Source of the DNA: Micromonosporaceae bacterium
GTDB lineage: Bacteria > Actinomycetota > Actinomycetes > Mycobacteriales > Micromonosporaceae
Direction of reading: 5' to 3'
Assembly (NCBI GenBank): GCA_019690055.1
Contig: JADGGF010000001.1
Location: forward strand, 1 to 34,350
DNA: 34,350 nt
Shown: piece after piece, positions 3,144 to 34,350 of the stretch
Position numbering within the stretch: position 1 is the first letter of the stretch
Layout of the letters: the number at the start of each line of letters is the position of its first letter
Notes under the pieces: model-generated
Databases searched by the model: none
Seen by the model: the letters and a program-made list of their open reading frames with translations, nothing else
Told to the model about the DNA's origin: nothing
Translations under genes and position numbers: made by a program

Positions 3144-3201
3144 GCTCCGGGTCCGGTCCGGGACCGTGGCCTCAGCCACATGGTCGGATGGCGACCCGCC
3201 T

Positions 3202-3219
3202 ATGTACCATCCGGTACAT
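3202..3219. promoter_or_regulatory. Palindrome ATGTACC-ATCC-GGTACAT overlapping the SRPBCC start codon; candidate operator for the co-transcribed TetR
   Basis: 7-bp perfect inverted arms (3202-3208 and 3213-3219). The right arm overlaps ATG 3218. TACCAT (3205-3210) fits the TANNNT -10 pattern, which would imply a leaderless or very short-leader transcript. Confidence 0.3.
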
Positions 3220-3661
3220 GGACTACGAGCAGACGATCGATACGCAGGCCGACGTGGGGCGGGCGTGGACCGCCCTGGCCGCGGTGCAGACGTATCCGCA
3301 GTGGACAAAGTCGATGAGCGCCGTCGAGCCGCTGGACGGACCGGAGCTGCGCGTTGGCCACCGCTTCCGGGTCCGGCAGCCCGGGCGGCCGGTCGTCGTG
3401 TGGCGGGTCTGTGAGGTGACCGACGGACGGTCGTTCCAATGGGAGGCGCGCACACCCGGGGTGTACACGGTCGCCTACCACCACCTGACGCCGCTGCCCA
3501 CCGGAGGTACCCGCATCACCATCGGCATCCGGCAGCGCGGGCCGCTGGCCGGCCTGGTCGCCCTCTTCACGGCCGCGAAGACCCGGCGCTACCTGGTGCT
3601 GGAGGCGGCCGGGCTCAAGGCGGCGGCCGAGGCCGTGCCGGCCAGCGAGGTCAGCCAGTAG
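3218..3661 (+). CDS. SRPBCC-superfamily (polyketide cyclase/dehydrase-like) protein
   Basis: ORF 3188..3661(+). MDYEQTIDTQADVGRAWTALAAVQTYPQW is a typical SRPBCC N-terminus, about 147 aa. The alternative ATG at 3188 adds 10 aa. Confidence 0.7.
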   Translation: MDYEQTIDTQADVGRAWTALAAVQTYPQWTKSMSAVEPLDGPELRVGHRFRVRQPGRPVVVWRVCEVTDGRSFQWEARTPGVYTVAYHHLTPLPTGGTRITIGIRQRGPLAGLVALFTAAKTRRYLVLEAAGLKAAAEAVPASEVSQ

Positions 3662-3670
3662 GCTGGCCGC

Positions 3671-4255
3671 ATGGCGGCGCGCGAGGCGCTGCTCGACCGG
3701 TGTGTCGAGTTCCTGACCAGCAACGGGTTCAGCCAGCTCAGCCTGCGCCAGATCGCCGCGGGCACGGGCACCAGCCACCGGATGCTCATCTACCACTTCG
3801 GTAACCGGGAGGGGTTGCTCACCGCGGTCGTGAACCGGGTCGAGGCTCTCCAGCGCGAGGCCCTCGTCGCGATGGCCCGGGAAATCGACGACCCGGTAGA
3901 GCTGGGCCGGCGGTTCTGGCGGCGCCTGGCCGACCCGTCCCTGGCCGGGGCCGAGCGGCTGTTCTTCGAGATCTACGCGCAGGCGCTGTACGGCCGGGAG
4001 TGGACCGACTCGTTCCGGGCCACCGTCATCGCGGCCTGGGCCGGGCCGGTCGAGGAGCTGTTCGTCCACTATGGATTTTCCCGCGACGAGGCCAGAGCCC
4101 GGGCCCGGCTGGGCATCGCCGCCACCCGCGGCCTGCTGCTCGACCTGCTGCTCACTGGCGAAACCGAGGTGCTCGACCAAGCCGCCGAGCTGCTCGGCGA
4201 GCTGCTCACGCGGCCGACGACCCCGGCGATGCCGCCGAGCGCGGCGACCCGCTGA
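3671..4255 (+). CDS. TetR-family transcriptional regulator
   Basis: 194 aa. HTH region FSQLSLRQIAAGTGTSHRMLIYHFGNREGL. Starts 9 nt after the SRPBCC stop, so probably co-transcribed. Confidence 0.85.
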   Translation: MAAREALLDRCVEFLTSNGFSQLSLRQIAAGTGTSHRMLIYHFGNREGLLTAVVNRVEALQREALVAMAREIDDPVELGRRFWRRLADPSLAGAERLFFEIYAQALYGREWTDSFRATVIAAWAGPVEELFVHYGFSRDEARARARLGIAATRGLLLDLLLTGETEVLDQAAELLGELLTRPTTPAMPPSAATR

Positions 4256-4462
4256 CCGATCCCCCGGGCTGGTGGTCGGGTGACCAGTTGCCTGGGTCAC
4301 ACGGGCCGGACCGGTCGACCGACCCACACCTAGTAACTTGCTAACTTCTGCAACTCGTGAGATTGGCGGGTCTCCGGACCGGGACGGGACGGGTTGCCCG
4401 ATCGGGGCAGGCGGCTAGGGTGAGGGTGGCGCACACGTCGATGCCGGAGGGGGTGGACGGGG

Positions 4463-4789
4463 GTGCACGCTCCGCTCTACCAGGCGAAGGCCGAGTTCTT
4501 CAAGGCGCTGGGACACCCGGCGCGTATCCGCGTGCTCGAGCTGCTCTCGGAGCGGGAGCACGCGGTGTCCGAGATGCTGCCCGGGGTGGGCATCGAGCCC
4601 GCGCATCTGTCCCAGCAACTGGCCGTGCTGCGCCGGCTGAACCTGGTGGTGACGCGCCGCGAGGGTTCGGCCGTCTACTACGCGCTGGTGAGCCCGCAGG
4701 TGGCCGAGCTGCTCGCGGTGGCGCGCCGGATCCTCACGGAGGTGCTCGCCAGTCAGGTCGAGTTGCTGGACGACCTGCGCGCGTCCTGA
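4463..4789 (+). CDS. ArsR/SmtB-family regulator, cysteine-free (Rv0081-like position ahead of hyc-like operon)
   Basis: 108 aa with a GTG start. KALGHPARIRVLELL and HLSQQLAVLRRLNLV form a wHTH typical of ArsR. No Cys residue anywhere, so the ELCVCD metal site is absent. Confidence 0.85.
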   Translation: MHAPLYQAKAEFFKALGHPARIRVLELLSEREHAVSEMLPGVGIEPAHLSQQLAVLRRLNLVVTRREGSAVYYALVSPQVAELLAVARRILTEVLASQVELLDDLRAS

Positions 4790-4856
4790 CTCGGCCACCC
4801 CGCTCGCTACCACCGCCGTCGCGACGACCCCGCTCGCTGGCCCACCGGAGGTTGGC

Positions 4857-5333
4857 GTGGGCCTGATCCGTCGCATCGCCGCCGCGGGGCGGGCCGCCCA
4901 GAAGGCTCCGGCCCGACCCGAGCCGCTGCCGGCGGCCCGGTGGCTCAAGCGTTCCCTGCAGATCCGGCACGTCGACGCGGGCTCGTGCAACGGATGCGAG
5001 ATCGAGCTCGGGCAGGCGTTCTCGCCCGTCTACGACGCGGAACGGTACGGCGCGCGGCTGGTCGCCTCGCCGCGCCACGCCGACGCGATCACCGTGACGG
5101 GGCCAGTGACCGTCAACATGGCGCAGGCGCTGCGCACGACCTACGAGGCGATGCCCGAGCCTCGCCTGGTCATCGGTATCGGTGACTGTGCCCGTAACTG
5201 CGGCGCCTTCGCGGGCGCCCACGCCGTGGTCGGTCCGGTTGACGACGTGGTGCCGGTTGACCTGCACGTGCCGGGCTGCCCGCCCGAGCCGGACGCCATC
5301 GTGGCCGCCCTGCGCGGCCTGACCGGCCGGTGA
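4857..5333 (+). CDS. NuoB/HycG-like small subunit of a group-4 hydrogenase-related complex
   Basis: GTG at 4857 after GGAGGT. Motifs GSCNGCEIE, GIGDCARNCG and VPGCPPEP provide the four Cys of the NuoB/HycG [4Fe-4S] site. Confidence 0.85.
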   Translation: MGLIRRIAAAGRAAQKAPARPEPLPAARWLKRSLQIRHVDAGSCNGCEIELGQAFSPVYDAERYGARLVASPRHADAITVTGPVTVNMAQALRTTYEAMPEPRLVIGIGDCARNCGAFAGAHAVVGPVDDVVPVDLHVPGCPPEPDAIVAALRGLTGR

Positions 5334-7348
5334 ACGTCGTCGCCGCGTCCCTTTCGGCCGCGGGTGGGCTCGCGGTCGCGGGGGCGATCAGCGCGGTCCT
5401 GTTCGGACGGTCGGTGCGCGCGGCGCTGGTGGGGCTGCTGACCGCGCCGGCGGGGGCGGCGGCGGCGGTCGCCGGGGCCGCCGCGGCCGGCGGCGTGTCG
5501 TGGTCGCTCGCCGCGCCGTACCTGCTGCCGCTGACCGGCGTCGAGCTGGCGGTCGATCCGCTGTCCGGGTGGTTCCTGCTGCTGATCGGCGCGGTCACCG
5601 CCGTGACCGGCGTCTATACGGTCGGCTATGCCGGCCGGCAGGGTCACGGCCCGGGGGCCCGACCGAGCCTGGTCCTGCTGCCCCTGTTCGCCGCCAGCCT
5701 GATGCTGGTGCCGGTCGCGGCGAGCGTACCGACGCTGCTTGTCGGCTGGGAGCTCATGGCGGTCACGTCGCTGCTGCTGGTGCTGACCGAACACCGCCAC
5801 GCGCCGGCCGTGCGGGACGCCGGGATCTGGTACGCGGCGTTGACCCAGCTCGGGTTCGTGGCGCTGCTCATCGGCCTGGTCTGGCTCGCCGGGACGGCGG
5901 GGGGCCCGAGCTTCGCCGCGATCCGGGCCGGTGCCCGCGACGTGGACGCGGCAACGGCGAGCGTCGTGTTCCTGCTCGGCCTGATCGGCTTCGCCGGCAA
6001 GGCGGGCGCGGTACCGCTGCACCCGTGGCTGCCCCGGGCGCACGCCGAGTCACCCAGCCATGTATCGGCGCTGATGAGTGCCGCGATGGTGAAGCTGGGC
6101 GTGTACGGCCTGCTGCGGCTCGGGTTCGACCTGCTCGGCGGCGGGGCGCCGTGGTGGTGGCTCCTGCTCGCGGCGGTCGGGGCGATATCGGCGCTGTACG
6201 GCATCACCCAGGCCGCCGTCGCCCGCGACATCAAGCGGATGCTCGCCTTCTCCACGAGCGAGAACGTGGGCCTGATCCTGCTCGGCGTCGGCTTCGCGGG
6301 GATGTACGCGCAGGCGGGCAACTCGACCGCGGCCGTGCTCGCCCTCGCGGCGGCGCTACTGCACGCCGCCAACCACGGCGCGTTCAAGGCGTTGCTCTTC
6401 GCCGGCGCCGGGTCGGTCGTGCGGGCGACCGGGACCCGCGACATGGATCGCCTGGGCGGACTGGTCCGCACGATGCCGGCCACCACCGTCCTGTTCGCCG
6501 GGGGCGCACTCGCCGCGGCGGCGCTCCCGCCCGGCAACGGCTTCGTCTCCGAGTGGCTGCTGCTGCAGTCGCTACTGCACCCCGGCCCGGACGCCGGCCC
6601 GATGCTGACGATCGCAGCGCCAATCGCCGTGGCCGTCGTCGCCGCCACCGCCGGCATCGGGGTCGCCACGTACGTGAAAGCGGTGGGCACGGGCTTTTTG
6701 GCCCGCCCGCGCTCGGACCGCGCGGCCACGGCCCGCGAGTCGCCGCCGAGCATGGTCGTCGCCATGGTGCTGGCCGGGCTGGCCTGCGTGGCGCTGGCGG
6801 TGGTGCCCGGCCTGACGATCCCGGTGCTGTCCCGCATCGCCGGTGACCTGCGTCTGGCGCCCCCCGGCGGGACCGTCGCGGCGTCGACCTTCGCCCTGCG
6901 GGTCGAGGCGGCCACGCTATGGCCACTGTGGACAGTGGTGGGCATCGTCGCCGGCACGGCCGCGGTCGCGGTCGCCGCCCGGGCGCTGGGTCGCGCGCGC
7001 CGCCGGGCTCCGGCCTGGGACTGCGGCGGCGGGCCGCTGACCGAACGGATGGAGTACACCGCGACCTCGTTCGCCGAGCCGCTGCAGCGCGTCTTCGACA
7101 ACGTGCTGGCGCCGGAGCGGGACGTGGACGTCACCCATGCCGATGAGTCGCGTTACCACGTCGCGGCGATCCGGTTCCACCAGCGCATCCCCGACCGCGT
7201 CGAGAACCGGATCTACCGACCGTTGGTCACCGCGCTCCGGTCGCTCGGCGAGCGGGTCCGGCCGCTGGCAAACGGGAGCGTGCACCGCTACCTCGGGTAC
7301 ATGCTCGTCGCCCTGCTCGCCGTCCTGGTCGTGGGGGTGCTGCGATGA
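5330..7348 (+). CDS. NuoL/HyfB/HycC-like antiporter-type membrane subunit
   Basis: 672 aa, polytopic. Mrp/NuoL-like motifs (WELMAVTSLLLV, HPWLPRAHAESPSHVSALMSA). GTGA overlap with the upstream gene. Confidence 0.85.
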   Translation: MNVVAASLSAAGGLAVAGAISAVLFGRSVRAALVGLLTAPAGAAAAVAGAAAAGGVSWSLAAPYLLPLTGVELAVDPLSGWFLLLIGAVTAVTGVYTVGYAGRQGHGPGARPSLVLLPLFAASLMLVPVAASVPTLLVGWELMAVTSLLLVLTEHRHAPAVRDAGIWYAALTQLGFVALLIGLVWLAGTAGGPSFAAIRAGARDVDAATASVVFLLGLIGFAGKAGAVPLHPWLPRAHAESPSHVSALMSAAMVKLGVYGLLRLGFDLLGGGAPWWWLLLAAVGAISALYGITQAAVARDIKRMLAFSTSENVGLILLGVGFAGMYAQAGNSTAAVLALAAALLHAANHGAFKALLFAGAGSVVRATGTRDMDRLGGLVRTMPATTVLFAGGALAAAALPPGNGFVSEWLLLQSLLHPGPDAGPMLTIAAPIAVAVVAATAGIGVATYVKAVGTGFLARPRSDRAATARESPPSMVVAMVLAGLACVALAVVPGLTIPVLSRIAGDLRLAPPGGTVAASTFALRVEAATLWPLWTVVGIVAGTAAVAVAARALGRARRRAPAWDCGGGPLTERMEYTATSFAEPLQRVFDNVLAPERDVDVTHADESRYHVAAIRFHQRIPDRVENRIYRPLVTALRSLGERVRPLANGSVHRYLGYMLVALLAVLVVGVLR

Positions 7349-8280
7349 CCGTGCTGGTGGCGCTGGGCCAGGCGGTGCTGCTGGCGGTGCTGGCCCCGTA
7401 CGTCCTCGGACTCACCCGCGCCGTCCGGGCCCGACTCGAGGGCCGGGCCGGCCGGCGGCTCGGCCAGCCGTGGCGGGACCTGCGCAAGCTGCTGCGCAAG
7501 CCGCCCACGAGCCCGAGCGACGCCAGCCTGTTCTTCGTCGCGGCCCCGCCGGTGCTCCTGGCGACCAGCCTGCTGGTGGCCGTCGCGGCGCCGTTCGTGG
7601 CCACGACCTCGCTCGCGGGCGAGGCCGACCTGATCGTCGTGGTCGGGCTGCTCCTGCTCGGCGCGGTCGCGCTCGCGCTGGCCGGGTTGGACACCGGCAC
7701 CGCGTTCGGCGGCATGGGTGCGAGCCGGGAGATGACGATCGCCGCGCTGGTGGAGCCGACGCTACTGCTGTCCGTCTTCGCCCTGTCGGTGCGGGTCGGC
7801 TCCACCGACCTCGCGGCGATCGTCACCGCCGGGGCGACGGATCCGGCCTCGGTCTTCACCCCGGCGAGCGCGCTGGCCGCCGCTGCCCTGGCGATCGCCA
7901 CGCTCGCCGAGTGCGGTCGCGTCCCGGTGGACAACCCATCGACTCACCTCGAGTTGACCATGGTCCATGAAGCGATGGTGCTGGAGTACTCGGGCCGGGA
8001 CCTCGCGCTGGTCGAGTGGGCCTCGGCGCTGCGCCTGACGATCCTGTTGGGACTGTTGGCGAACCTGTTCGCGCCCTGGGGAGTGGCGACGCACCTGACC
8101 CCGGTGGCGCTGGCCATCGGGACGGCCGCATTCATCGCCAAGGTCGGCGGGCTGGCCGCGCTGCTGGCCGCGGGTGAGGTCCTCGCCGCCAAGCTGCGCC
8201 TGTTCCGGGTGCCCGAGCTGCTGGCCGGGTCGTTCGCGCTGGCCCTGCTCGCCGTCCTCGCCGCCGCGGTGCTGGGCTGA
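7345..8280 (+). CDS. NuoH/HycD-like membrane subunit
   Basis: 311 aa. ATGA overlap at 7345-7348. Contains RVPVDNPSTHLELTMVHEAMVLEYSGRDLAL, a HycD/NuoH-type loop. Confidence 0.85.
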   Translation: MTVLVALGQAVLLAVLAPYVLGLTRAVRARLEGRAGRRLGQPWRDLRKLLRKPPTSPSDASLFFVAAPPVLLATSLLVAVAAPFVATTSLAGEADLIVVVGLLLLGAVALALAGLDTGTAFGGMGASREMTIAALVEPTLLLSVFALSVRVGSTDLAAIVTAGATDPASVFTPASALAAAALAIATLAECGRVPVDNPSTHLELTMVHEAMVLEYSGRDLALVEWASALRLTILLGLLANLFAPWGVATHLTPVALAIGTAAFIAKVGGLAALLAAGEVLAAKLRLFRVPELLAGSFALALLAVLAAAVLG

Positions 8281-8293
8281 CCGGAGGGATGGC

Positions 8294-8959
8294 ATGCACG
8301 GCGCGACCTGGGTGGAGCAGGCGTTCAACCTCGCCTGTGGCCTGCTGTTGCTGACCGCGGTCGGCGCCCTGTGGCGCCGGGAGACCTCCGCGCTCATCCC
8401 GATCCTGACCGTCCAGGGTGGAGCACTGACCGCGATCGCCGTGATGCTCGCGGCCGGCCACCCGGACGGCGGGCAGGCCGTGCTCGTCGCAGTGGTGGTC
8501 GGGCTGCTGAAGGTGGTCATCATCCCGCTGCTGCTGCGCCGGGTGCACCGGCTCGTGCGCAACGCCCGCGAGACCCGACCCCTCGTCAACGTCGCCACCT
8601 CGCTGCTGGCCGCCGCCGGGCTGTGCCTGCTCGCCTACGCCGCCGCCCGACCTCTGGTCGCGGTGGCCGAGTCGCCCACGGCGCGGGCCACGCCCGTGGG
8701 GCTGAGCCTGGTGCTGATCGGGTTCTTCCTCGCCGCCACGCGACACCGGGCCATCTCGCAGATCGTGGGCCTGCTGCTGATCGACAACGGCATCGCGGCC
8801 ACCGCCTTCCTGGCCACCGACGGGGTGCCGCTCATCGTCGAGCTGGGCGTCTGCGCGGACCTGGTGCTCGCGGTGCTGGTGCTGCAGGTACTGACCGCGC
8901 GGATGGTGCACACGTTCGGCGACGGCGACCTCGACGACCTGCGGGAGCTGCACGACTGA
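8294..8959 (+). CDS. HyfE/HycP-like small membrane subunit
   Basis: ATG at 8294 after GGAGGGA (8283-8289). 221 aa, hydrophobic. Occupies the position of Rv0085/HyfE in this gene order. Confidence 0.7.
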   Translation: MHGATWVEQAFNLACGLLLLTAVGALWRRETSALIPILTVQGGALTAIAVMLAAGHPDGGQAVLVAVVVGLLKVVIIPLLLRRVHRLVRNARETRPLVNVATSLLAAAGLCLLAYAAARPLVAVAESPTARATPVGLSLVLIGFFLAATRHRAISQIVGLLLIDNGIAATAFLATDGVPLIVELGVCADLVLAVLVLQVLTARMVHTFGDGDLDDLRELHD

Positions 8960-10485
8960 TGAACCTCGCTCTGCTCGATCCCGTCGCCGGCCCGGTGGCC
9001 GGCGCGCTGCTCGGTCCCGTCGCCGCCCCGGTGGCCGGCGCGCTGCTCGCCGCCGTGCTGCCACGGCGGGTGGCCGCCTGGACCTCGCTGCTCGCCGCCG
9101 CCAGCGTGCTCGCCGCCGGCATCGCGCTCGCCGCCCACACGGGGCAGGGCGCGACGATCACCGCCGGGCTGCTGCGCGCCGACGCGCTCACCGCCTGGTT
9201 GGTGGTCGCCGTCGGCGCGGTCGCCACGGTCGCCTGCTGGGCGGGCGTACACCACCTGGCCGACCGAGCCCGCCACGGTGACCTCACTCCGGCCGCGGCG
9301 CGCCGCTACCTCGTGCTCGTGCAGGCCTTCCTGGCCTGCATGACCGTCGCGGTGATGGCGGCCAATGTTGGCCTGTTCTGGGTCGCGGTGGAGGCGACCA
9401 CGGTCGTGACCGCGTTCCTCGTGGGCCACCAGCGCACGCGGGCCAGCGTCGAGGCCGCCTGGAAGTACGTCGTGCTCTGCTCGATCGGCGTCGGTATCGC
9501 GTTGCTGGGCACAATCTGCGTCTACGCCGCCGCCATCGCCGCCGGCCCGGCTCCGCTCGGCGGCCTCGAGGCGCTGAACTGGTCCTACCTGAACCAGCAC
9601 GCGGCCCAGCTCGATCCGGGCCTGATGCGGTTGGCGGCCGGGTTGATCCTGCTCGGGTTCGGCGCCAAGGCCGGGCTCGTGCCGATGCACGCCTGGCTAC
9701 CCGACGCGCACAGCCAGGCGCCGGCCCCGGTCTCCGCCCTCATGTCCGGGGTCCTGCTGTCGGTCGCCTTCTACGGCATCCTCCGGTACAAGAGCGTCAT
9801 CGATGCCGCGCTCGGCCCCACGTACGTCCGGACCCTGCTGCTCGTCGCCGGCCTGGGTTCGCTGGCGCTGGCCGCCCTGCTGCTGATCGGTCAGCGCGAC
9901 TACAAGCGCCTGCTCGCCTACTCGTCGATCGAGCACATGGGGTTGATCGCGCTGGGCACCGCCATCGGCGGACGTCTGGCGATCGCCGCGGTGCTGCTGC
10001 ACATCCTCGGTCACGGACTGGCCAAGGCCGTCGCCTTCTGCGGCGCCGGGCACATCCTGCACCAGGTCGGCAGCCCGCTGATCACCCACGTGCACGGCGC
10101 CCTGGCCCGCACTCCGGCCACCGCGGGGCTGTTCGGCCTGGCCGTGGTCGCGCTGCTCGGCCTGCCCCCGTTCGCGCTGTTCGCCTCCGAGATCACCCTG
10201 GCCCGGGCCGGGTTCGCCGCCGGGATGGGCGCGGTCGTCGCCGCCGCCTTCCTGCTGGTGCTCGTCGCGTTCGCCGCGATCGCCCGCCGCGCCGCGGGCA
10301 TGCTCCTCACGCCGTCCCCGACGTCTCCGTCGGCCCCGGCCGAGCACCCCGGCCCCCGTCCCGGGCTGCGGTGGCTGCCGCTGGCCCTGGGGTTGGTCGC
10401 GGCGGCCGGGCTGGGGATCTGGCTCGGACCGCTGCAGCCACTGCTGGACAGCGCCGCCCTCATCGCCGCCGAGGGGATCCGATGA
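8959..10485 (+). CDS. NuoN/NuoM/HyfF-like antiporter-type membrane subunit
   Basis: ATG at 8959 shares one nt with the TGA at 8957-8959. 508 aa. Contains KAGLVPMHAWLPDAHSQAPAPVSALMSGV, the antiporter-like signature. Confidence 0.8.
   Translation: MNLALLDPVAGPVAGALLGPVAAPVAGALLAAVLPRRVAAWTSLLAAASVLAAGIALAAHTGQGATITAGLLRADALTAWLVVAVGAVATVACWAGVHHLADRARHGDLTPAAARRYLVLVQAFLACMTVAVMAANVGLFWVAVEATTVVTAFLVGHQRTRASVEAAWKYVVLCSIGVGIALLGTICVYAAAIAAGPAPLGGLEALNWSYLNQHAAQLDPGLMRLAAGLILLGFGAKAGLVPMHAWLPDAHSQAPAPVSALMSGVLLSVAFYGILRYKSVIDAALGPTYVRTLLLVAGLGSLALAALLLIGQRDYKRLLAYSSIEHMGLIALGTAIGGRLAIAAVLLHILGHGLAKAVAFCGAGHILHQVGSPLITHVHGALARTPATAGLFGLAVVALLGLPPFALFASEITLARAGFAAGMGAVVAAAFLLVLVAFAAIARRAAGMLLTPSPTSPSAPAEHPGPRPGLRWLPLALGLVAAAGLGIWLGPLQPLLDSAALIAAEGIR
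8980..9051 (+). repeat. In-frame 36-bp tandem duplication (x2) at the N-terminus of the HyfF-like subunit
   Basis: Units 8980-9015 and 9016-9051 agree at 33 of 36 positions. They encode PVAGPVAGALLG / PVAAPVAGALLA. Confidence 0.85.
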
Positions 10486-12005
10486 CCGAACGCGCCACCG
10501 TCGATGTCAACAGCGCCGATGAGTTGCGGGAGCGCACCGCCCGGTTGCTCGGCGACGGGTTCCGGCTCGCCCTCGTGGCGGCGCACCACGACGCCTTGCG
10601 TGTCGGGGACGCCGCGCACCTTGGGGACGACGCGCAGATCCGGATCGTCTACCTGTTCACCGCCGGCCCGCCCGACCGGCGCCTGGAACTGGTGTGGCGC
10701 ACCGACGCGCCCCACCCGACCGTACCGAGCATCGCGGCCCTGTCGTTCCCCGGCAGCCGGTTCGAACGGGAGATGCACGACCTGTACGGCGTACGGCCCG
10801 ACGGGCACCCCATGCTGCGGCCCCTGGTGCACCATCCACACTGGCCGGACGGCTGGTACCCCATGCGCCGCGACGCCGGGCCCCGTCCCCCGCTGCAGGC
10901 CCACCGGCCGTTCCCGTTCCTCACCGTGGCCGGCGACGGCGTCTACGAGATCCCGGTCGGCCCCGTCCACGCTGGACTAATCGAACCTGGCCACTTCCGG
11001 TTCTCGGTGGTGGGCGAGACGATCCTCCGTCTCAAGGCCCGCCTCTGGTACGTCCACAAAGGAATCGAGAAGCTCGCCGAGGGCCGGACCGTCCTGGAGA
11101 ACCTGCCGCTCGCCGAGCGCGTCTCCGGCGACACGGCGATCGGCCACGCCCTGGCCTACTGCCTGGCCGTCGAGGACGCCCTCGGCCTCGAGGTCGGCGA
11201 GGACGTCGCCGCTGTCCGGTCCGTGCTGCTCGAGCTGGAGCGCCTGCACAACCACGTCGCCGACATCGGCGCCATCTGCAACGACGTCGCCTTCGGCATC
11301 GCCCACGCCCACACCCAGCGCATCCGCGAGTCGCTGCTGCGCCTCAACAAGGCGGTCACCGGTCACCGCCTGCTGCGGGGCGGCGTCGTCCCCGGAGGCG
11401 CGCAGATCGCCACTGGGCCGGACCTGCGCACCGTGGCGACGGCGGCCCGCGACCTCGCCGAGGTCGTCGCCTACGCGCTCGACCACAGCGTCGTCCGCGA
11501 ACGCCTGACCGGCACGGCCGTCCTCACCGCCGACCAGGCCCGCGACACGGGCGCACTCGGGTACGTCGCCCGGGCCAGCGGCCTGGCCTACGACGCCCGC
11601 GTGGCCCACCCGTTCCTCGCCAGCGGTCCCGAGGTCACCGTGGTCACTCGGGACACCGGCGATGTGCTCGCGCGGTTCCTGGTCCGCGCCGACGAGGCCC
11701 AGCACAGCGCCGCGCTGGTCCAGGCGCTCGCCCCGGCCCTGCCCACCGGCCGGATCGGGGTCACGGATGCCGGCCCGACCGGCGGCGCGACGCGCTCCGG
11801 CGTCGGCATCGTCGAAGGCTGGCGCGGCACGATCGTCCACCGGGTCGAGATCGGTCCCGACGGGCGCCTGCGCCGATGGAAGATCGTCGACCCATCCTTC
11901 CTCACGTGGCCTGCCCTGCCCCTGGCCATGGCCGACACGATCGTGCCCGACTTCCCGCTGGCCAACAAGAGCTTCAATCTCTCCTACGCCGGCAACGACT
12001 TGTAG
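10482..12005 (+). CDS. NuoC-NuoD fusion / HycE-like large subunit lacking the [NiFe] cysteine ligands
   Basis: ATGA overlap at 10482-10485. 507 aa. GPVHAGLIEPGHFRF and LELERLHNH are NuoD/HycE-like. The site expected to read RxCGxC reads AERVSGDTAIGH, and the C-terminus reads NKSFNLSYAGNDL where DPCxxCxxR is expected. Confidence 0.85.
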   Translation: MTERATVDVNSADELRERTARLLGDGFRLALVAAHHDALRVGDAAHLGDDAQIRIVYLFTAGPPDRRLELVWRTDAPHPTVPSIAALSFPGSRFEREMHDLYGVRPDGHPMLRPLVHHPHWPDGWYPMRRDAGPRPPLQAHRPFPFLTVAGDGVYEIPVGPVHAGLIEPGHFRFSVVGETILRLKARLWYVHKGIEKLAEGRTVLENLPLAERVSGDTAIGHALAYCLAVEDALGLEVGEDVAAVRSVLLELERLHNHVADIGAICNDVAFGIAHAHTQRIRESLLRLNKAVTGHRLLRGGVVPGGAQIATGPDLRTVATAARDLAEVVAYALDHSVVRERLTGTAVLTADQARDTGALGYVARASGLAYDARVAHPFLASGPEVTVVTRDTGDVLARFLVRADEAQHSAALVQALAPALPTGRIGVTDAGPTGGATRSGVGIVEGWRGTIVHRVEIGPDGRLRRWKIVDPSFLTWPALPLAMADTIVPDFPLANKSFNLSYAGNDL

Positions 12006-12022: not shown

Positions 12023-13009
12023 CTACGGGCGGAGCGACCGCTCGCGCGCCTCGTCGATGACCTCGGCCACCGGGCGGCGCGGCGTGGCCGGGGCCGGATC
12101 GCCGTACCCGATCCGCAGCACCATCTGGGGCGTGCCGGGGCGGCCGAGGGCGATTCGCAACTGCTCCCGGGCCGCACCGACCTCGATCGGCTGGGACAGC
12201 ATGGAGCTGGCCAGGCCGTGGTCGGTGATGGTGAGCAGCACGTGCTGCAGCGCGTAACCGGCCTGCAGCTGGTCCCGGTGAGTGTTGCCGGTCGTGCCCA
12301 GCACGCCGACGAGCGGCTCCTCCCGGGGGTCCGTCGCGGCGCGGACGAGCTCGCCGAACGGCCGCTGGGGCAGCAGATCCTGCGGCCCCACGCTGAGCCC
12401 GCCGGCCCCGGCCGGGACGCCGTCGATCGCACGACCGTCGCGCCGGGTCCACGCCGCGAGCTCGGACGCGTAGGCGGTGTTGCGCAGCAGGACCCGGTTG
12501 GCCGCGTGGGCGATCTCGCTGACCGCGGCGAGCGGGACCGGGCCGACCACCAGGTCCAGCCAGGCGCCGGCGCTGGCCGCCGCCTGGATCATGGCGATGC
12601 GGGCCGCGGACGGTACCGGCTCCGGGCGGAAGGGCCGGCGGTTGCTGCGGCGGTACGGAATCGCCCGAAACAGCCGTTCCTGGGCGGGCGTCGGGGGCCG
12701 CGCGGGCTCGGGGCGCAGCGCGGCCATCAGCGTGGGCTGGGCCGGGTCCGGGCGCCAGTGCACGGACAGCGGCGTCCCGTTAACCGCGAAAGCGAGCGCC
12801 AGGTTGTACGTCGCCGCCCCGCAGGCGATGCGGACGGCCCATCCGTCGGGATCGGCGACGGGCGGCGTCCGGCCGGGGTCGGCCAGGACGTGGACCTCGT
12901 CCCCGTCGAGGCGAAACCGCCAGGGCTGGCTGTTGTGCAGCGACGGGGCCAGGATCGCAGCCTCGACGGCGAGACGGAACTCGCGGTCGCTGATCGACAC
13001 GGGCGTCAC
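12023..13009 (-). CDS. Acg-family nitroreductase-like protein (Rv2032/Rv3131 type)
   Basis: ORF 12023..13075(-). APSLHNSQPWRFRL is the Acg-family motif. GTG at 13009 is preceded by GGAGGGAAGAG and gives 328 aa. The ATG at 13075 is the alternative start. Confidence 0.8.
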   Translation of the reverse strand: MTPVSISDREFRLAVEAAILAPSLHNSQPWRFRLDGDEVHVLADPGRTPPVADPDGWAVRIACGAATYNLALAFAVNGTPLSVHWRPDPAQPTLMAALRPEPARPPTPAQERLFRAIPYRRSNRRPFRPEPVPSAARIAMIQAAASAGAWLDLVVGPVPLAAVSEIAHAANRVLLRNTAYASELAAWTRRDGRAIDGVPAGAGGLSVGPQDLLPQRPFGELVRAATDPREEPLVGVLGTTGNTHRDQLQAGYALQHVLLTITDHGLASSMLSQPIEVGAAREQLRIALGRPGTPQMVLRIGYGDPAPATPRRPVAEVIDEARERSLRP

Positions 13010-13080
13010 CTCTTCCCTCCGGTCATCCCCCCACGGTGCCCAGTACGCACCGTTTCGGGCAGGGCCAGAGGTCACGAGCT

Positions 13081-13152: not shown

Positions 13153-13172
13153 ATCGGGACTTTCGTCCCGGC
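13153..13172. promoter_or_regulatory. DosR/DevR-type box (core GGGACTTTCGTCCC, 13156-13169)
   Basis: 13 of 14 core positions match the published M. tuberculosis consensus GGGACTWWAGTCCC. The core ends 35 nt before the dosR-like ATG, in the spacer shared with the divergent acg-like gene. A weaker box, GGGACGGTCGTTCG, lies at 13134-13147, 22 nt away. Confidence 0.65.
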
Positions 13173-13204: not shown

Positions 13205-13840
13205 ATGATCCGTGTGTTCCTGCTTGACGACCACGAGGTGGTCCGCGCCGGGCTGAAGGAGCTGCTGCAGCACGACGGCGACATTGAGGTCGTCGGCGAG
13301 TCCGGCTCCGCGCAGGAGGCGGCTCGCCGCATACCTGCGCTGCGGCCCCACGTGGCCGTGCTGGACGCACGGCTGCCCGACGGCAACGGTATCGACGTCT
13401 GCCGCGAGATTCGTTCGGTCGACCCCAGCATTCAGGGGTTGATCCTCACCTCGTACGAGGACGACGAGGCGCTCTTCGCCGCGATCATGGCCGGGGCCGC
13501 CGGGTACGTGCTCAAGCAGATCAAGGGCACCGACCTGGTCGACACGATCCGGCGGGTGGCGGCGGGCCAGTCGATGCTCGACCCGGTCGTCACCCAGCGG
13601 GTCCTGGAGCGGATCCGGCACGGGGTGGAGACCCCGGACGAGCTCGCCGTGCTCACCGAGCAGGAACGGCGGATCCTTGTCCACATCGCCGAGGGCCTGA
13701 CCAACCGGGAGATCGCGGCCAAGATGTTCCTGGCCGAGAAGACGGTCAAGAACTACGTGTCAAGCCTGCTCGCCAAGCTCGGCCTGGAGCGGCGCACGCA
13801 GGCGGCCGTGCTGGCCACCCGCCTGCTCGGCAAGCGCTAG
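13205..13840 (+). CDS. dosR: DosR/DevR-like NarL/LuxR-family response regulator
   Basis: 211 aa. MIRVFLLDDHEVVRAGL...HVAVLDARLPDGNGIDVCREI...LILTSYEDDEAL...AGAAGYVLKQIKG aligns by eye almost block-for-block with DevR. C-terminal LuxR HTH: LTNREIAAKMFLAEKTVKNYVSSLLAKLG. Confidence 0.9.
   Translation: MIRVFLLDDHEVVRAGLKELLQHDGDIEVVGESGSAQEAARRIPALRPHVAVLDARLPDGNGIDVCREIRSVDPSIQGLILTSYEDDEALFAAIMAGAAGYVLKQIKGTDLVDTIRRVAAGQSMLDPVVTQRVLERIRHGVETPDELAVLTEQERRILVHIAEGLTNREIAAKMFLAEKTVKNYVSSLLAKLGLERRTQAAVLATRLLGKR

Positions 13841-14063: not shown

Positions 14064-14066
<3 letters not shown>
14031..14066. repeat. 18-bp tandem repeat x2 (CGAAGCCATAGTTAGGTA / CGAAGCCATAGTTGGTTA)
   Basis: 16 of 18 positions identical. 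The second unit ends on the TAA stop of the kinase gene (14064-14066, minus). Located in a low-GC convergent spacer. Confidence 0.75.
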
Positions 14067-18589
<4,523 letters not shown>

Positions 18590-18640
18590 CACACTGCCTC
18601 CTCGTGCCCACTCCACCGTGGACCGGTCTCGATCGACAGG

Positions 18641-18660
18641 GCAGGGCCGAAGGTCCGGCC
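18641..18660. promoter_or_regulatory. Degenerate DosR-type box (core GGGCCGAAGGTCCG, 18644-18657)
   Basis: GGG-8 nt-CC spacing is right, and 9 of 14 core positions match. Located in the divergent spacer between the ATPase-kinase operon and the hspX-like gene. A related GGCCGGATGGTCCGG lies at 18681-18695. Confidence 0.35.
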
Positions 18661-18760
18661 ATCGGCGGCCGGTCGACCCTGGCCGGATGGTCCGGATCGC
18701 GCTGCCATGGAAGCCGGGGAACGGTTCATGAAGCTGGGGAAGGTGAGGAAGGAGGACGCC

Positions 18761-19144
18761 ATGACGACCCTCGTACCGAGGCTCTGGGCGGAGATGACCG
18801 ACTGGCTGGAGCAGGACCTGATGCCGCGGGGCATCCGTCTGGAGGACCGGATCACCGACACCGAGTACACGGTCCGCGCCGAGTTGCCCGGGTTGGATCC
18901 CGAGAAGGACATCCAGCTCACGGTCGCGCACGGGGTGCTCACGATCCACGCCGAGCGCAAGGAGCAGACGCAGACCAGGCACCGCACCGAGTTCCGCTAC
19001 GGGGTCTTCGAGCGGTCGATCCGGCTGCCGGCCAACGCCGAGGAGTCCAAGATCAAGGCCGACTACCGTAACGGAATCCTGGAGATCACGGTGCCGCTGA
19101 CGCCGGTGGAGACCGCGCGGCGGATCGCGATCACCAGCAAGTAG
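18761..19144 (+). CDS. Hsp20/alpha-crystallin family protein (HspX/Acr-like)
   Basis: ORF 18707..19144(+). ATG at 18761 follows GGAAGGAGGA. RAELPGLDPEKDIQLTV...LTIHAERKEQ...EFRYGVFERSIRLP...IKADYRNGILEITVP is closely HspX-like. Confidence 0.85.
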   Translation: MTTLVPRLWAEMTDWLEQDLMPRGIRLEDRITDTEYTVRAELPGLDPEKDIQLTVAHGVLTIHAERKEQTQTRHRTEFRYGVFERSIRLPANAEESKIKADYRNGILEITVPLTPVETARRIAITSK

Positions 19145-19223
19145 CCGATCAGCAGCTCGTAGCCGGTCACGGGCAATAAACCCGATCACCAGCCCAAAAA
19201 TCCTGCCCGAACCGGGGCGCCGA

Positions 19224-19243
19224 ACCGGGGGCGGTGCCCCGGT
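19224..19243 (+). terminator. GC-rich hairpin ACCGGGG-GCGGTG-CCCCGGT downstream of hsp20
   Basis: 7-bp stem with a 6-nt loop in the convergent spacer. No clear T-tract, so weak. Confidence 0.25.
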
Positions 19244-19331
19244 CCTCGTATTCGCCCATCGGCGGACACCGGCGACGCGGGCTCCGTCCACATCGGACTA
19301 CATCAGGGTACGTACGTCAGACCACAGTGGA

Positions 19332-22112: not shown

Positions 22113-22132
22113 ACAGGGAACAACGTCCCGTA
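22113..22132. promoter_or_regulatory. DosR-type box (core GGGAACAACGTCCC, 22116-22129)
   Basis: 11 of 14 core positions match, with correct GGG-8 nt-CCC spacing. Located in the divergent spacer between the patA-like gene and the second acg-like gene. Confidence 0.5.
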
Positions 22133-25655: not shown

Positions 25656-28031
25656 ATGCGTGTCGTTCCCGGTAATCCCCTCACCGAGACGGAGCTGAGC
25701 CAGCTCGACGCGCACTGGCGCGCGGCGAACTATCTGGCGGTCGGCCAGATCTACCTGATGGCCAATCCCCTGCTGCGCGAGCCCTTGCAGCCCGACCACG
25801 TCAAGCCGCGCCTGCTCGGCCACTGGGGCACGACCCCCGGGCTCAATCTCGTCTACACCCACCTCAACCGGATCGTCACCCGCCGCCAGCGGCCGACGAT
25901 CTACATCGCCGGACCGGGGCACGGCGGCCCGGCGATGGTGGCCAACGTCTGGCTCGAGGGCACGTACAGCGAGATCTACCCGGCGGTGAGCCGGGATGAG
26001 CGCGGCATGGCCCGACTGTTCCGCCAGTTCTCGTTCCCCGGCGGGGTGCCCAGCCACGTGGCCCCGGAGACGCCCGGCTCGATCCACGAGGGCGGCGAGC
26101 TGGGGTACTCGCTGGCCCACGCCTTCGGCGCGGCCTTCGACAACCCCGACCTGATCGTGGCCTGCGTGATCGGCGACGGCGAGGCCGAGACCGGGCCCCT
26201 GGCCACCGCCTGGCACTCCAACAAGTTCCTTGACCCGACTGGGGACGGCGCCGTGCTGCCCATCCTCCACCTGAACAGTTACAAGATCGCCAATCCGACC
26301 ATCCTCGCCCGAATCGGCGACGAGGAACTGGATGCGCTGCTGACCGGGTACGGCTACCGCCCCTATCTGGTTGAGGGCAGCGAACCGCCCCAGGTCCACC
26401 AGCGCCTGGCGGCGGCACTGGACGAGGTGATCGACGAGATCGACCGAATTCAGCGGGCGGCGCGCGTCGACGGCCGTACCGACCGTCCTCAGTGGCCAAT
26501 GATCGTGCTGCGGACGCCGAAAGGCTGGACCGGGCCGAAGACAGTGAGCGACCGTCCGGTCGAGGGCACCTGGCGTTCCCACCAGGTGCCCCTGAGCGCG
26601 GCCCGGGAGGACCCGGAGCAGTTACTCCAGCTCGAGGAGTGGCTGCGCTCCTACCGGCCGGAGGAGCTGTTCGACGAGGCCGGAGCGCCCCGACCGGAGG
26701 TGGTCGGCTGGCTGCCCACCGGCGACCTGCGGATGGGGGCGAACCCGCACGCCAACGGCGGCCGGCTCACCCGACCGCTGGAGCTGCCCGACTTCCGCGC
26801 CTACGCGGTGAAGGTCGACGTGCCCGGCGCCACCACGGCGGAGCCCACCCGCGTGCTGGGGGCCTGGCTGCGGGATGTGGTCGTGGCCAACGAGCCCTAC
26901 CGCAACTTCCGCATCGTCGGGCCGGACGAGACCGAGTCCAACCGCCTCGGCGCCGTACTGGAGGCGACCGACAAGGTCTGGCGGGCCGCTGTATCCGATG
27001 TGGACGAACACCTCGGGAGGTCCGGTCGGGTCATGGAGATCCTCTCCGAGCACACCTGCCAGGGTTGGCTGGAGGGGTACCTGCTCACCGGCCGGCACGG
27101 CCTCTTCTCGTGCTACGAGGCGTTCGTGCACATCGTGGACTCGATGGTCAACCAGCACGCCAAATGGCTCAAGTCCACCCAGGAGCTACCGTGGCGGGCC
27201 CCGATCCCGTCGCTGAACTACCTGCTCACCTCACACGTATGGCGGCAGGACCACAACGGCTTCTCCCACCAGGACCCCGGGTTCATCGACTTCATCGTCA
27301 ACAAGAAGGGCAACGTGGTGCGGGTCTACCTGCCACCGGACGCCAACACCCTGCTGTCGGTCACCGACCACTGCCTGCGCTCGCGCGACTACATCAACGT
27401 CATCGTCGCCGGCAAGCAACCCGGACCGTCCTGGTTGGACATCGAGACGGCACACCTGCACTGCGCCCGCGGCATCGGCATCTGGGAATGGGCCTCCACC
27501 GACCACGCCGAACCCGACGTCGTGCTCGCCTGCGCCGGCGACGTGCCCACCCTGGAGACCCTGGCCGCCGCCGACCTGCTGCACACATACCTGCCCGACC
27601 TGCGGTTCCGGCTGGTCAACGTAGTCGACCTCATGCGGCTGAACTCCCCCAGCGAGCACCCGCACGGCCTGTCCGACGCCGAGTTCGATGCGATCTTCAC
27701 CACCGACAAGCCGATCATCTTCGCCTACCACGGCTACCCGTGGCTGATCCACCGGCTCACCTACCGCCGTACCGGGCACGCCAACCTGCACGTACGCGGC
27801 TACAAGGAGGAGGGCACCACCACGACCCCGTTCGACATGGTCGTCCGCAACGATATGGACCGCTACCACCTCGTCATGGACGTCATCGACCGCGTGCCCG
27901 GGCTGGCCCGCCAGGCGGCGGCCGTCCGCCAGCTCATGGTGGACCAGCGGCTGCGCCACCACGAGTACGTACGCCGGACCGGCCTGGACCTCCCGGAGGT
28001 CCGCGAGTGGACGTGGCGCGGCCTGGCGTAG
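25656..28031 (+). CDS. xfp: Phosphoketolase (xylulose-5-P/fructose-6-P)
   Basis: About 791 aa. [37 protein letters not shown] and GDGEAETGP are XFP signature blocks. GTG at 25653 is the alternative start. Confidence 0.9.
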
Positions 28032-28036
28032 GTTGC

Positions 28037-28090
28037 GTCAGGAAGGACGCCCTCTTGACGCCTAATGACCAGGAGGGCGTCCTTCCTGAC
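28037..28090. terminator. Perfect 18-bp-stem hairpin GTCAGGAAGGACGCCCTC / GAGGGCGTCCTTCCTGAC (18-nt loop)
   Basis: Arms at 28037-28054 and 28073-28090, starting 6 nt after the xfp stop and followed by ACTTTGTC. Flanked by 10-bp direct repeats (see findings). Confidence 0.5.
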
Positions 28091-28122
28091 ACTTTGTCGG
28101 TGCCCGCTCGTAGGTTGCCGGC

Positions 28123-29091
28123 ATGGCAAGTCCCTCCAGCCCGCACGATGCGGTGTTCCGTCTGGTCCTGGGTGAGCCGGCGAACGGGGCCTCGCAACTG
28201 CGGGCGGTGCTGCCGGCGGGCCTGGTCGATCGGCTCGACCTGTCGCGCTTGGCCCAGGTCTCCGGAAGTTTCGTTGATGAGGCGCTGCAGTGGCGTCACT
28301 CCGATCTGCTGTTCACCGTCCCGTTGGATGGCCGTGATGCCTTTATCTATGTGCTGATCGAGCATCAGAGCAGTGAGGACCCGTTGATGCCGGTGCGGAT
28401 GCTGCGGTACGTGGTGCGTATCTGGGACCGGTACCTGTCCGAGCATCCGGGGGTGACCCGGCTGCCGGCGGTGATCCCGCTGGTCGTGCACCACAACCGG
28501 CGCCCCTGGACCGGCTCGACCCAGCTATTGGACCTGCTTGACCTCGACGCACCCGCCATCGACGCGGTCCAGGATTACCTGCCCCGGTTCCGGTTCATCC
28601 TCGACGATCTGGCCCGCCTGGACGCGCAGGCGCTGCGCGCCCGGCCGGTGACCCCACTGGTGCGCATCACCCTGCTGGTGCTCAAGATCGCCCCCGGCAA
28701 CCCGGAACTGCCCCAGGACCTGCAGCCCTTCGTCGACGACCTGCGCGCGATCCTGGACCAGCCCGGCGGCACCGCCAAGTTTGTCGCCCTGCTGAGATAC
28801 ATTGAGTCAGTCGGTGAAGCGCCCCCCGACGAGTTGCGCAAACTGGTCGCCATGCTGGGTCCGGACGCAGAGGAGGCCTACGTGACCACCGCCGAAATGC
28901 TCCGCGCCGAGGGGCGGGCCGAAGGTCGTGCCGAGGGGCGGGCGGAGGCGCTCGTGCAGCTGCTGACCCTCAAGTTCGGACCCCTGCCCCAATCCGCACT
29001 CGACGCCGTACACGCCGCCTCCACCGAGCAACTCCAGACCTGGACCGCCCGCGTCCTGTCCGCCAACACCCTCGACGAGGTACTCGGCTGA
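28123..29091 (+). CDS. Rpn-family (YhgA/Transposase_31-like) PD-(D/E)XK recombination-promoting nuclease
   Basis: 322 aa. HDAVFRLVL, DLLFTV...YVLIEHQSSEDPLMPVRMLRY and the C-terminal AEGRAEGRAEGRAE repeat are typical of the family. Confidence 0.8.
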   Translation: MASPSSPHDAVFRLVLGEPANGASQLRAVLPAGLVDRLDLSRLAQVSGSFVDEALQWRHSDLLFTVPLDGRDAFIYVLIEHQSSEDPLMPVRMLRYVVRIWDRYLSEHPGVTRLPAVIPLVVHHNRRPWTGSTQLLDLLDLDAPAIDAVQDYLPRFRFILDDLARLDAQALRARPVTPLVRITLLVLKIAPGNPELPQDLQPFVDDLRAILDQPGGTAKFVALLRYIESVGEAPPDELRKLVAMLGPDAEEAYVTTAEMLRAEGRAEGRAEGRAEALVQLLTLKFGPLPQSALDAVHAASTEQLQTWTARVLSANTLDEVLG

Positions 29092-29169
29092 ACTGCCTTG
29101 ACCGGCTGGTAGCAGCCCCGACGGGTCGGACAACCGCCGGCTGGCCGGGCTCGAAAGACAATCCGCCGC

Positions 29170-33811: not shown

Positions 33812-34350
33812 GGCTGTCCACTGTGGTCGGTCGGGAGCCGCAGGCGGGCCACGCAGGCGTTGGGGGCAGCGAACGGTTCCAGCACCGCCTCGCCGTCGGC
33901 GGCCCCGACGGTGCGCAGCACGCCGCGGATCACCCCGGCGTGCAGGGCGCACATGACGTCCGGCTGCTGGCCGACCAGTTCCAGGAACGGGCAGGTACGC
34001 AGGTGCACCTCGACGTCTCCCGCGTTTCCGGTCTCGCCAGCGGAGCCCCCGGTCTCGCCCGCGGAACTCCCCGCATCGCGACCCTCAGTGTCGACAGTGG
34101 AGCTTCCCGGGCCGGGAGTGGAGCTCTTGGCGTCGGGTGCGGGAGTCTCGGCGTCGCCGACGCGGTGAAGGTGCGGATCGAACCCCAGGTCCCTCAGCAC
34201 GGTGACGGTGGCATCGACCGGGCTCGTTGGCTGCGGCAGCGCCGCAGCGAGCTGCCGGCCCCACGCCTGGCCGGCCTGGGCCGCGACCGGGACGCCACCA
34301 CCGGCCGTGGCCAGATGCTCGAGCAAGGCGGCGGCGAGCGTGCGATAGGG
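33808..34350 (-). CDS. Transcriptional regulator, C-terminal part only (gene continues past the window end); ArsR-like family with a Cys-containing C-terminal domain
   Basis: The frame is open to nt 34350 (PYRTLAAALLEHLATAG...). The C-terminal LRTCPFLELV...VMCALHAGVIRGVL pattern is typical of actinobacterial wHTH regulators. Contains a 21-bp tandem repeat at 34028-34069. Confidence 0.55.
   Translation of the reverse strand, partial: PYRTLAAALLEHLATAGGGVPVAAQAGQAWGRQLAAALPQPTSPVDATVTVLRDLGFDPHLHRVGDAETPAPDAKSSTPGPGSSTVDTEGRDAGSSAGETGGSAGETGNAGDVEVHLRTCPFLELVGQQPDVMCALHAGVIRGVLRTVGAADGEAVLEPFAAPNACVARLRLPTDHSGQP

Follow-up and report, generated by a model that had tools for sequence, protein, structure and literature searches.

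Complexes of the energy-converting hydrogenase-related (Ehr) type go back to a definition by Marreiros et al. 2013 (cited in PMC4758237). They are described as lying near the group 4f hydrogenases, missing the CxxC motifs and being of unknown function (PMC10284858; 10.1101/765248), with Nitrospira and Elusimicrobia among the reported carriers. The hyc-family genes Rv0081–Rv0087 of Mycobacterium tuberculosis have been called homologous to Ehr complexes and not a functional hydrogenase, in a species without hydrogenase assembly genes (PMC6728331); other tuberculosis papers treat the locus as a putative [NiFe] hydrogenase (PMC6901956, PMC11361433). Here we describe a locus of this type at positions 4463–12005 of a 34,350-nucleotide stretch of DNA from a Micromonosporaceae bacterium (GenBank assembly GCA_019690055.1, contig JADGGF010000001.1, positions 1 to 34,350 of the forward strand), which was analysed over its whole length and is referred to below as the window. 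In all likelihood the locus consists of an ArsR-type regulator gene and a functional six-gene Ehr operon, and is not a hydrogenase. An annotation made earlier from the nucleotide sequence of the window alone (the original prediction) had already proposed an Ehr-type module rather than a hydrogenase. This interpretation is correct, given the ligand loss in the locus, in Rv0087 and in 80 related loci and the retention of cluster and channel residues; it was already published and is not new.

The locus comprises seven open reading frames (ORFs) on the plus strand (Table 1), each with the codon-position pattern of guanine-cytosine (GC) content found in genuine genes, in a window of high GC (0.67–0.77 in 1-kb steps). 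Pfam and NCBIfam agree with all seven gene assignments and, together with the ORF coordinates, with the order originally read (ArsR, then NuoB-, NuoL/HyfB-, NuoH/HycD-, HyfE-, HyfF- and NuoCD/HycE-like); the GTGA, ATGA and TGATG overlaps and the 13-nt gap are exactly as described then. The six complex genes are here labelled ehrS, ehrA, ehrB, ehrC, ehrD and ehrL. EhrS matched Pfam Oxidored_q6 (E 9e-31) and, in the PDB, MbhJ of Pyrococcus furiosus (4.7e-37) and HycG (6.9e-33). EhrA was assigned to the NCBIfam ‘hydrogenase 4 subunit B’ (E 1.7e-164) with HycC as PDB match (7z0s_C, E 1.8e-58, residues 13–594), and EhrB to Pfam NADHdh (E 2.8e-36) with a full-length match to HycD (7z0s_D, E 1.5e-36). 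EhrC matched the NCBIfam ‘hydrogenase 4 membrane subunit’ PRK11492 (E 6.3e-21), Pfam Oxidored_q2 only weakly, and no sequence in the PDB. EhrD is an NCBIfam ‘hydrogenase 4 subunit F’ (E 2.1e-108) with PDB matches to MbsH, NuoM and MbhH. By Pfam and NCBIfam EhrL is a fusion of NuoC with NuoD/NiFeSe_Hases, and its PDB match is HycE (7z0s_E, E 3.5e-61).

The defining feature of the locus is the loss of the [NiFe] site from this large subunit. In a HMMER alignment with Escherichia coli HycE (PDB 7z0s_E), RVCGICGFAHS of HycE pairs with RVSGDTAIGHA of EhrL and DPCYSCTDR with NLSYAGNDL, which is directly followed by the stop codon. This places S215, T218, S501 and G504 at the four metal-binding cysteine positions, hence all four cysteines are replaced, as had been predicted; the N-terminal motif had also been put on the right codons (11121–11135, which encode V214–T218). 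Neither the L1 (RxCGxCxxxH) nor the L2 (DPCxxCxxH/R) motif of group 4a is present. EhrL contains just two cysteines, C227 and C266, both off the ligand positions. HycE is processed by HycI at its C-terminal cleavage site. EhrL ends at the alignment position where HycE is cut during maturation, in agreement with the predicted lack of a C-terminal maturation extension, a feature that is not diagnostic alone because the nearest cysteine-bearing relatives are without the extension too.

An AlphaFold2 model of EhrL, built with 61 sequences, was confident (predicted local distance difference test, pLDDT, 92.1) except in the beta1-beta2 loop (residues 163–169). Its top fold match was HycE (7z0s_E, TM-score 0.89/0.85), with E. 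coli NuoCD next. In the PDB, Foldseek and sequence searches gave E. coli formate hydrogenlyase (FHL) as the closest solved complex, at about 29% identity, and returned no Ehr entry. EhrL has the fold and scaffold of HycE without its metal-binding cysteines, and therefore almost certainly cannot hold a [NiFe] centre and neither makes nor consumes H2.

The same loss was found throughout the family. The 120 nearest database proteins come chiefly from Micromonosporaceae and metagenomes and are 62–91% identical to EhrL. Each of them reads R[VI]SGDT..GH or a near variant; three have a cysteine at one ligand position, and the C-terminus is exactly NKSFNLSYAGNDL in 112. A scan of one genome per species detected 80 related loci in Actinobacteria, Nitrospirae and Proteobacteria. 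Every one of them encodes a large subunit without the two [NiFe]-binding CxxC pairs and with VGPVHAGxIEPGHFRF, RxSGD[ST] and a C-terminal NKSxNxSY[SA]GxDL. Sixty-eight of these loci (Nitrospirae, Mariprofundaceae, methanotrophs, Geobacteraceae and others) have the order A-B-(C)-D-L-S, and EhrL is 40–46% identical to the proteins of Nitrospirae and Geobacteraceae, with shared signature motifs. Actinobacterial loci, carried by Micromonospora, Hamadaea, Kribbella, Streptomyces, Kitasatospora, Actinospica, Actinophytocola and Acidimicrobiales, have the order S-A-B-C-D-L, usually with an ArsR gene (linked to the operon in eight loci). The phylum-spanning replacement signature R-x-S-G-D-[ST] ... N-L-S-Y-[AS]-G-x-D-L is new here.

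A contig of the M. tuberculosis complex (L081), reached via the PDB sequence of Rv0081, carries Rv0079 to Rv0090 and with them the same seven genes in the same order (arsR-S-A-B-C-D-L) and orientation as in the window, with junctions that overlap or nearly abut. ArsR is 58% identical to Rv0081 on this contig and matches the Rv0081 structure (PDB 6jmi) over its full length (residues 3–107, E 3.5e-34). Identities to Rv0082–Rv0087 are 65% for EhrS, 55% for EhrA, 61% for EhrB, 46% for EhrC, 49% for EhrD and 59% for EhrL, bearing out the M. tuberculosis layout first proposed for the locus, which is probably the orthologue of Rv0081–Rv0087. Rv0087 contains ERISGDTSAAH, ends in NKSFNQSYAGNDL and has no ligand cysteines; cysteine loss is typical of Rv0087 and of the whole family, and the locus is not deviant. 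The surroundings differ, as the M. tuberculosis operon is flanked by Rv0079, Rv0080 and Rv0088, with dosRS elsewhere in the genome, whereas the window operon abuts an Acg-type nitroreductase gene, dosR and dosS/T. The SRPBCC gene upstream of the operon (3188–3661) showed no BLAST similarity to Rv0088 at E 1e-5.

Two further observations concern the M. tuberculosis operon and its flank. One assembly of the M. tuberculosis complex, the Logan assembly of SRR7851365 (L082), lacks 4,422 bp relative to L081 (9534–13955 of L081). With this deletion the 3′ end of Rv0084 and the whole of Rv0085–Rv0087 are gone and the Rv0084 remnant is joined to the region upstream of Rv0088, which makes it a natural knockout of the Ehr complex. 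A Pyridox_ox_2 gene (Rv0080-like split-barrel flavoprotein) adjoins the ehr operon in only two loci, at 6029–6487 of L081 and at 8169–8690 of an Actinospica metagenome-assembled genome (L008), which is not enough to speak of an association.

Relatives that keep the cysteines were found by a HMMER search of 1.84 billion cluster representatives, which gave 6536 matches at E <= 0.001; cysteine states were read in the best 150 of these, 104 of them full-length. Of the 104, 19 have the full set of four cysteines and another two have three of them. These cysteine-bearing relatives, probably group 4f hydrogenases, read ER[IV]CGxC..SH ... NKSFELCY[SA]CxDR without a C-terminal extension (e.g. representatives P0254, P0261 and P0269). 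At 37–45% identity to EhrL (residues 150–507) they are about as near as distant Ehr proteins, and they share with EhrL the NKSF[E/N]L...Y...D end, the beta1-beta2 loop and most scaffold residues. A position-by-position comparison of 79 cysteine-less with the 19 cysteine-bearing sequences gave S/A at 215, D at 217 (67 of 79) and S/T/E/N at 218 in the former, against C, V/A and C in the latter, in which L507 is consistently replaced by Arg and P471 by Ala. EhrL hence differs consistently from these relatives in the four cysteines, D217, L507 and P471; the remaining scaffold, with E168 and H171 of the beta1-beta2 loop, is as well conserved in one set as in the other. Because the scaffold outside the metal site is conserved as in the cysteine-bearing relatives, the comparison argues that EhrL is a hydrogenase large subunit from which the metal site has gone and the rest been kept, and that it may have retained its coupling role. 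A crude neighbour-joining tree of the 104 representatives did not separate Ehr from the cysteine-bearing relatives. A few intermediates with one cysteine kept were also seen, such as P0323 (RICGDSSVAY ... NKSFNLSYAGADL).

The small subunit retains its cluster ligands and the antiporter-like subunits largely retain their ion-channel residues, as counted across 75–82 homologues. EhrS C44, C47, C111 and C141 correspond in alignment to the cluster ligands of MbhJ and HycG and are invariant in 73–75 family members; the small subunit has indeed kept the four cysteines of its [4Fe-4S] site, as originally noted. Conserved residues of EhrA are the Glu of transmembrane helix 5 (TM5, E141), the TM7 Lys (K224), the TM8 Lys (K255, Asn in a minority of homologues), K353 and the TM12 Glu (E408); those of EhrD are E145, K237, K356 and E411. 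Ratios of non-synonymous to synonymous substitution (dN/dS) were 0.07–0.27 for all seven genes against a 91%-identical relative (L083). All genes of the locus are under purifying selection, and with the conserved ion-channel residues this points to a functional complex.

By gene content the operon is that of an Ehr complex, with NuoB, NuoD(+C), NuoH, a NuoK-like and two NuoL/M/N-like subunits and nothing else conserved. It shares with Ehr complexes six subunits of the same families, a large subunit without CxxC, a small subunit with cluster ligands and the three motifs given above for the 80 loci. It differs in order, since ehrA-B-C-D-L-S is not matched and the window and other Actinobacteria have S-A-B-C-D-L with an ArsR gene attached, whereas the 68 non-actinobacterial loci have other regulators (XRE-type, or a sensor kinase and a sigma-54-type regulator). 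The S-A-B-C-D-L order is a clade-specific rearrangement with unchanged gene content. The closest solved structures are HycE, HycC, HycD and HycG of E. coli FHL-1 (7z0s, group 4a), and EhrC and EhrD match HyfE and HyfF, which are specific to hydrogenase-4 (Hyf). Unlike FHL-1 and Hyf, however, the window complex is without [NiFe] ligands, HycF/HyfH, HycB/HyfA, FdhF, the C-terminal extension and HycI. Likeness to complex I includes homologous NuoB, CD, H, K, L and M, retained N2-type ligands, the end of EhrL at the position where NuoD ends, and antiporter-like subunits in which the Glu of TM5, the Lys of TM7 and the Glu of TM12 are retained. In contrast to complex I there is no NuoI, NuoEFG, NuoA, NuoJ or NuoN, and similarity is much lower (E ~1e-21 to 1e-28).

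The original prediction had reported no HycF/NuoI, FdhF, hyp or hycI in the window, and our scans were likewise negative: a CxxCxxCxxxCP ferredoxin motif was absent from all six frames of the whole window, and Pfam detected no formate dehydrogenase, Hyp protein or HycI-type protease among its other coding ORFs. Among 51 flanking ORFs of ten other actinobacterial loci, no Pfam family occurred in more than two loci, hence no recurring partner was seen, and regulators were the only recurring neighbours of the non-actinobacterial loci. The conserved unit would be the six genes, plus ArsR in Actinobacteria, and since no partner family recurs at the flanks, any redox partner is probably encoded elsewhere. 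A SulP transporter, which clustering suggested as a neighbour in 14 loci, was rejected as a single-linkage artefact after tblastn found it in two only (L003 and L005).

The flanking genes resemble a DosR-type dormancy set (Table 1). The hypoxia island noted originally is supported by homology to DevR/DosR, the haem-GAF domain of DosT/DevS and Acg nitroreductase; further flank genes encode a P-type ATPase, Hsp20, tandem USP and phosphoketolase by Pfam, an ADP-forming acyl-CoA synthetase–GNAT fusion and a second nitroreductase-like ORF (weak Pfam match). In L083 and L084, relatives at 91% identity, the nitroreductase gene sits in the corresponding place, with dosR and dosS likewise conserved, and the order SRPBCC, TetR, arsR, ehr, nitroreductase, dosR, dosS, ATPase is kept in the 91% relative. 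The direct linkage of ehr to dosR, dosS/T and an Acg-type nitroreductase is new here.

Table 1. Features of the ehr locus and of the adjoining dosR region, in window positions
Feature	Position	Strand	Description
arsR	4463–4789	+	108 aa; Pfam HTH_5, NCBIfam ArsR/SmtB; probable Rv0081 orthologue
ehrS	4857–5333	+	158 aa; NuoB/HycG/MbhJ-like small subunit, N2-type [4Fe-4S] site
ehrA	5330–7348	+	672 aa; HyfB/HycC/NuoL-like antiporter-type subunit; GTGA overlap with ehrS
ehrB	7345–8280	+	311 aa; HycD/NuoH-like; ATGA overlap with ehrA
ehrC	8294–8959	+	221 aa; HyfE-like (NuoK-related) membrane subunit; 13-nt gap after ehrB
ehrD	8959–10485	+	508 aa; HyfF/NuoM-like antiporter-type subunit; TGATG overlap with ehrC
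ehrL	10482–12005	+	507 aa; HycE/NuoCD-like large subunit without [NiFe] ligands; ATGA overlap with ehrD
Former L1 motif	11118–11147	+	R213-V-S215-G-D217-T218-A-I-G-H222 replaces RxCGxCxxxH
Former L2 motif and C-terminus	11964–12002	+	N495-K-S-F-N-L-S501-Y-A-G504-N-D-L507, stop codon next
Acg-type nitroreductase	12023–13075	-	Convergent, 17 nt from ehrL stop; Pfam Nitroreductase and TM1586_NiRdase; PDB 2ymv E 1.1e-24
DosR-box-like palindrome ATCGGGACTTTCGTCCCGGC	13153–13172	.	Divergent nitroreductase–dosR intergenic region; 16/20 of M. tuberculosis DosR consensus
dosR/devR-type response regulator	13205–13840	+	PDB 3c3w (DevR) E 1.4e-71, residues 1–208
dosS/dosT-type GAF-GAF-HisKA_3 sensor kinase	14064–15803	-	Pfam GAF_2, HisKA_3, HATPase_c; PDB 2vzw (DosT GAF domain) E 3.9e-52, DevS entries

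The palindrome between the nitroreductase and dosR genes is the sole window site with at least 14/20 identity to the M. tuberculosis DosR consensus. The number of DosR-like sites in the window was not above shuffled expectation, hence only the position of the palindrome is suggestive. Upstream of arsR we detected an inverted repeat, CGGGTGACC-N9-GGTCACACG (4277–4303), and an AT-rich direct repeat, TAACTTGCTAACTT (4334–4347), both candidates for an operator or promoter element of the Rv0081-like regulator; a sigma-70 and terminator scan of 4200–4900 found nothing. A weaker DosR-like site (13/20) lies at 22113–22132, upstream of the second nitroreductase gene.

On the Ehr reading, the complex would be a minimal module for redox-coupled ion translocation. 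A low-potential carrier such as ferredoxin, soluble or encoded separately, would dock directly on EhrS/EhrL in the place of NuoI/HycF, and electrons would enter or leave via the single cluster, with an acceptor at an EhrL/EhrS/EhrB interface lined by Ser, Asp, Thr and Asn instead of Ni-Fe thiolates. The reaction would be coupled to H+ or Na+ movement through EhrA, EhrB, EhrC and EhrD, or would run in the reverse direction with the membrane potential as driver. Expression is probably under the Rv0081-like repressor, and in this lineage may also be tied to the adjacent DosR/DosS system for hypoxia and nitric oxide (NO).

Several observations weigh against parts of this scheme, and the specific electron path that we infer is much less certain than the Ehr identity. 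The quinone-ligand Tyr of NuoD (Y87 of Thermus thermophilus Nqo4) aligns with G216 (RMDYIS against RVSGDT, 7q5y_B), hence a complex-I-type quinone site is not evident; the quinone-site His (H38 of Nqo4) has a counterpart in H171 of the EhrL beta1-beta2 loop, but hydrogenases have it too. In EhrD the TM8 Lys position is taken by S268 (window 9760–9762) and is Asn in 66 of 82 family members. None of the other actinobacterial loci examined shows the dosRS linkage, and upstream of arsR or ehrS there is no DosR box of at least 12/20, the best site there scoring 11/20. Transcript evidence consists of one compost RNA run with 0.07 of sampled words, which is too little; the sequence was otherwise found in DNA metagenomes only, from wood decay, with 0.73–0.94 of sampled words. 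As a separate observation, EhrA keeps the central TM8 lysine and EhrD does not, and the ion paths through these two antiporter-like subunits may not be equivalent.

A more specific proposal is that Ehr would be a minimal respiratory module for hypoxia on which a partner docks, passing electrons directly from a soluble low-potential carrier to menaquinone or another small acceptor with ion pumping, or working in reverse. We regard this as tentative and, taken whole, unlikely. The donor could be a hypoxia-induced ferredoxin, for instance, and the acceptor would bind in the remodelled Ser/Asp/Thr/Asn pocket; the invariant Asp217 and the polar residues that replace the cysteines would then make up a new site for catalysis or proton loading and not a dead one. 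In the reverse variant, reduced carrier would be regenerated for the neighbouring Acg-type nitroreductases. If true, such a module would keep up the membrane potential and redox balance of actinobacteria that are not growing, M. tuberculosis among them.

The main rival to the Ehr reading is that the complex is an Mrp-like cation/proton antiporter, either redox-independent or redox-gated, in which EhrS/EhrL would form a structural or regulatory cap and the cluster would serve as a redox or O2/NO sensor and not conduct electrons. This would suit a large subunit without a catalytic metal site, the finding that a redox-partner gene is linked in no clade, the matches of the antiporter-like subunits to MrpA/MrpD (E 1e-23 to 1e-42) and a neighbourhood that senses hypoxia/NO. 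However, the four cluster ligands are invariant across phyla, the EhrL scaffold outside the former cysteine positions, including E168 and H171, is that of the cysteine-bearing relatives, as expected if redox-linked conformational coupling has been retained, and Mrp systems need no NuoB/D/H-like module. We therefore consider an antiporter of this kind improbable.

A genuine formate hydrogenlyase or group-4 [NiFe] hydrogenase is still harder to accept. With the four ligand cysteines replaced, the two remaining ones off the ligand positions, the same loss in the whole family and no HycF, HycB, FdhF, hyp or hycI in the window, it would be very surprising, despite best PDB matches of four subunits that include HycC, HycD, HycE and HycG of E. 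coli FHL, relatives at 37–45% identity that carry the cysteines, labels in databases (for example ‘Ni,Fe-hydrogenase III large subunit’ or ‘formate hydrogenase HycE’) and the usage of PMC6901956. Nor is the operon at all likely to be what is left of a decaying hydrogenase operon that no longer has a function. Its active site is gone, and the 4.4-kb deletion of the Rv0084 remainder to Rv0087 in L082 makes it dispensable at least in that strain, but the seven ORFs are intact and translationally coupled, dN/dS stays at 0.07–0.27, and conservation of the replacement motifs, the cluster ligands and the channel residues extends from Actinobacteria to Proteobacteria.

M. tuberculosis Rv0082–87 is still widely annotated or discussed as a formate hydrogenlyase or [NiFe] hydrogenase, the annotated gene names of the locus being hycD, hycP, hycQ and hycE. 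A single active-site signature without cysteines is common to Rv0087, its orthologues from many soil actinomycetes and the Ehr proteins of Nitrospirae and Proteobacteria. The position of the operon beside dosR, dosS/T and an Acg-type nitroreductase gene gives independent, non-mycobacterial support for a role in hypoxia/NO adaptation. The locus adds context and signatures to a tuberculosis-relevant, unexplained class and not a new principle. Its presence in genera that can be cultivated and are harmless, with carriers such as Micromonospora costi (isolate CS1-12), Kribbella sp. GL6, strains of Streptomyces (among them Streptomyces sp. NPDC047002) and strains of Kitasatospora, makes the operon tractable for genetics and cryo-electron microscopy.

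Rfam gave no RNA family match in the window, and two long ORFs outside the locus probably need revised boundaries. In the P-type ATPase ORF (15800–19291, minus strand, 1163 aa), about 250 N-terminal residues are without a domain match and the ORF overlaps the Hsp20 gene (18449–19144, plus strand); the ATPase gene probably begins near 18.6 kb in reality, with hsp20 and the ATPase gene divergent. The ORF at 29928–33952 (minus strand, 1297 aa) has cupredoxin/multicopper-oxidase matches only at residues 893–1149, and the coding frame shifts near 32.55 kb within it; it is probably two genes. Neither its upstream part (32591–33952) nor the ORF at 33808–34326 has a Pfam match. GC falls to 0.67–0.68 at 27000–29100, around a YhgA-like (Transposase_31/PDDEXK) gene at 28123–29091, directly past the phosphoketolase gene; a mobile element may have inserted here, where the dormancy set ends.

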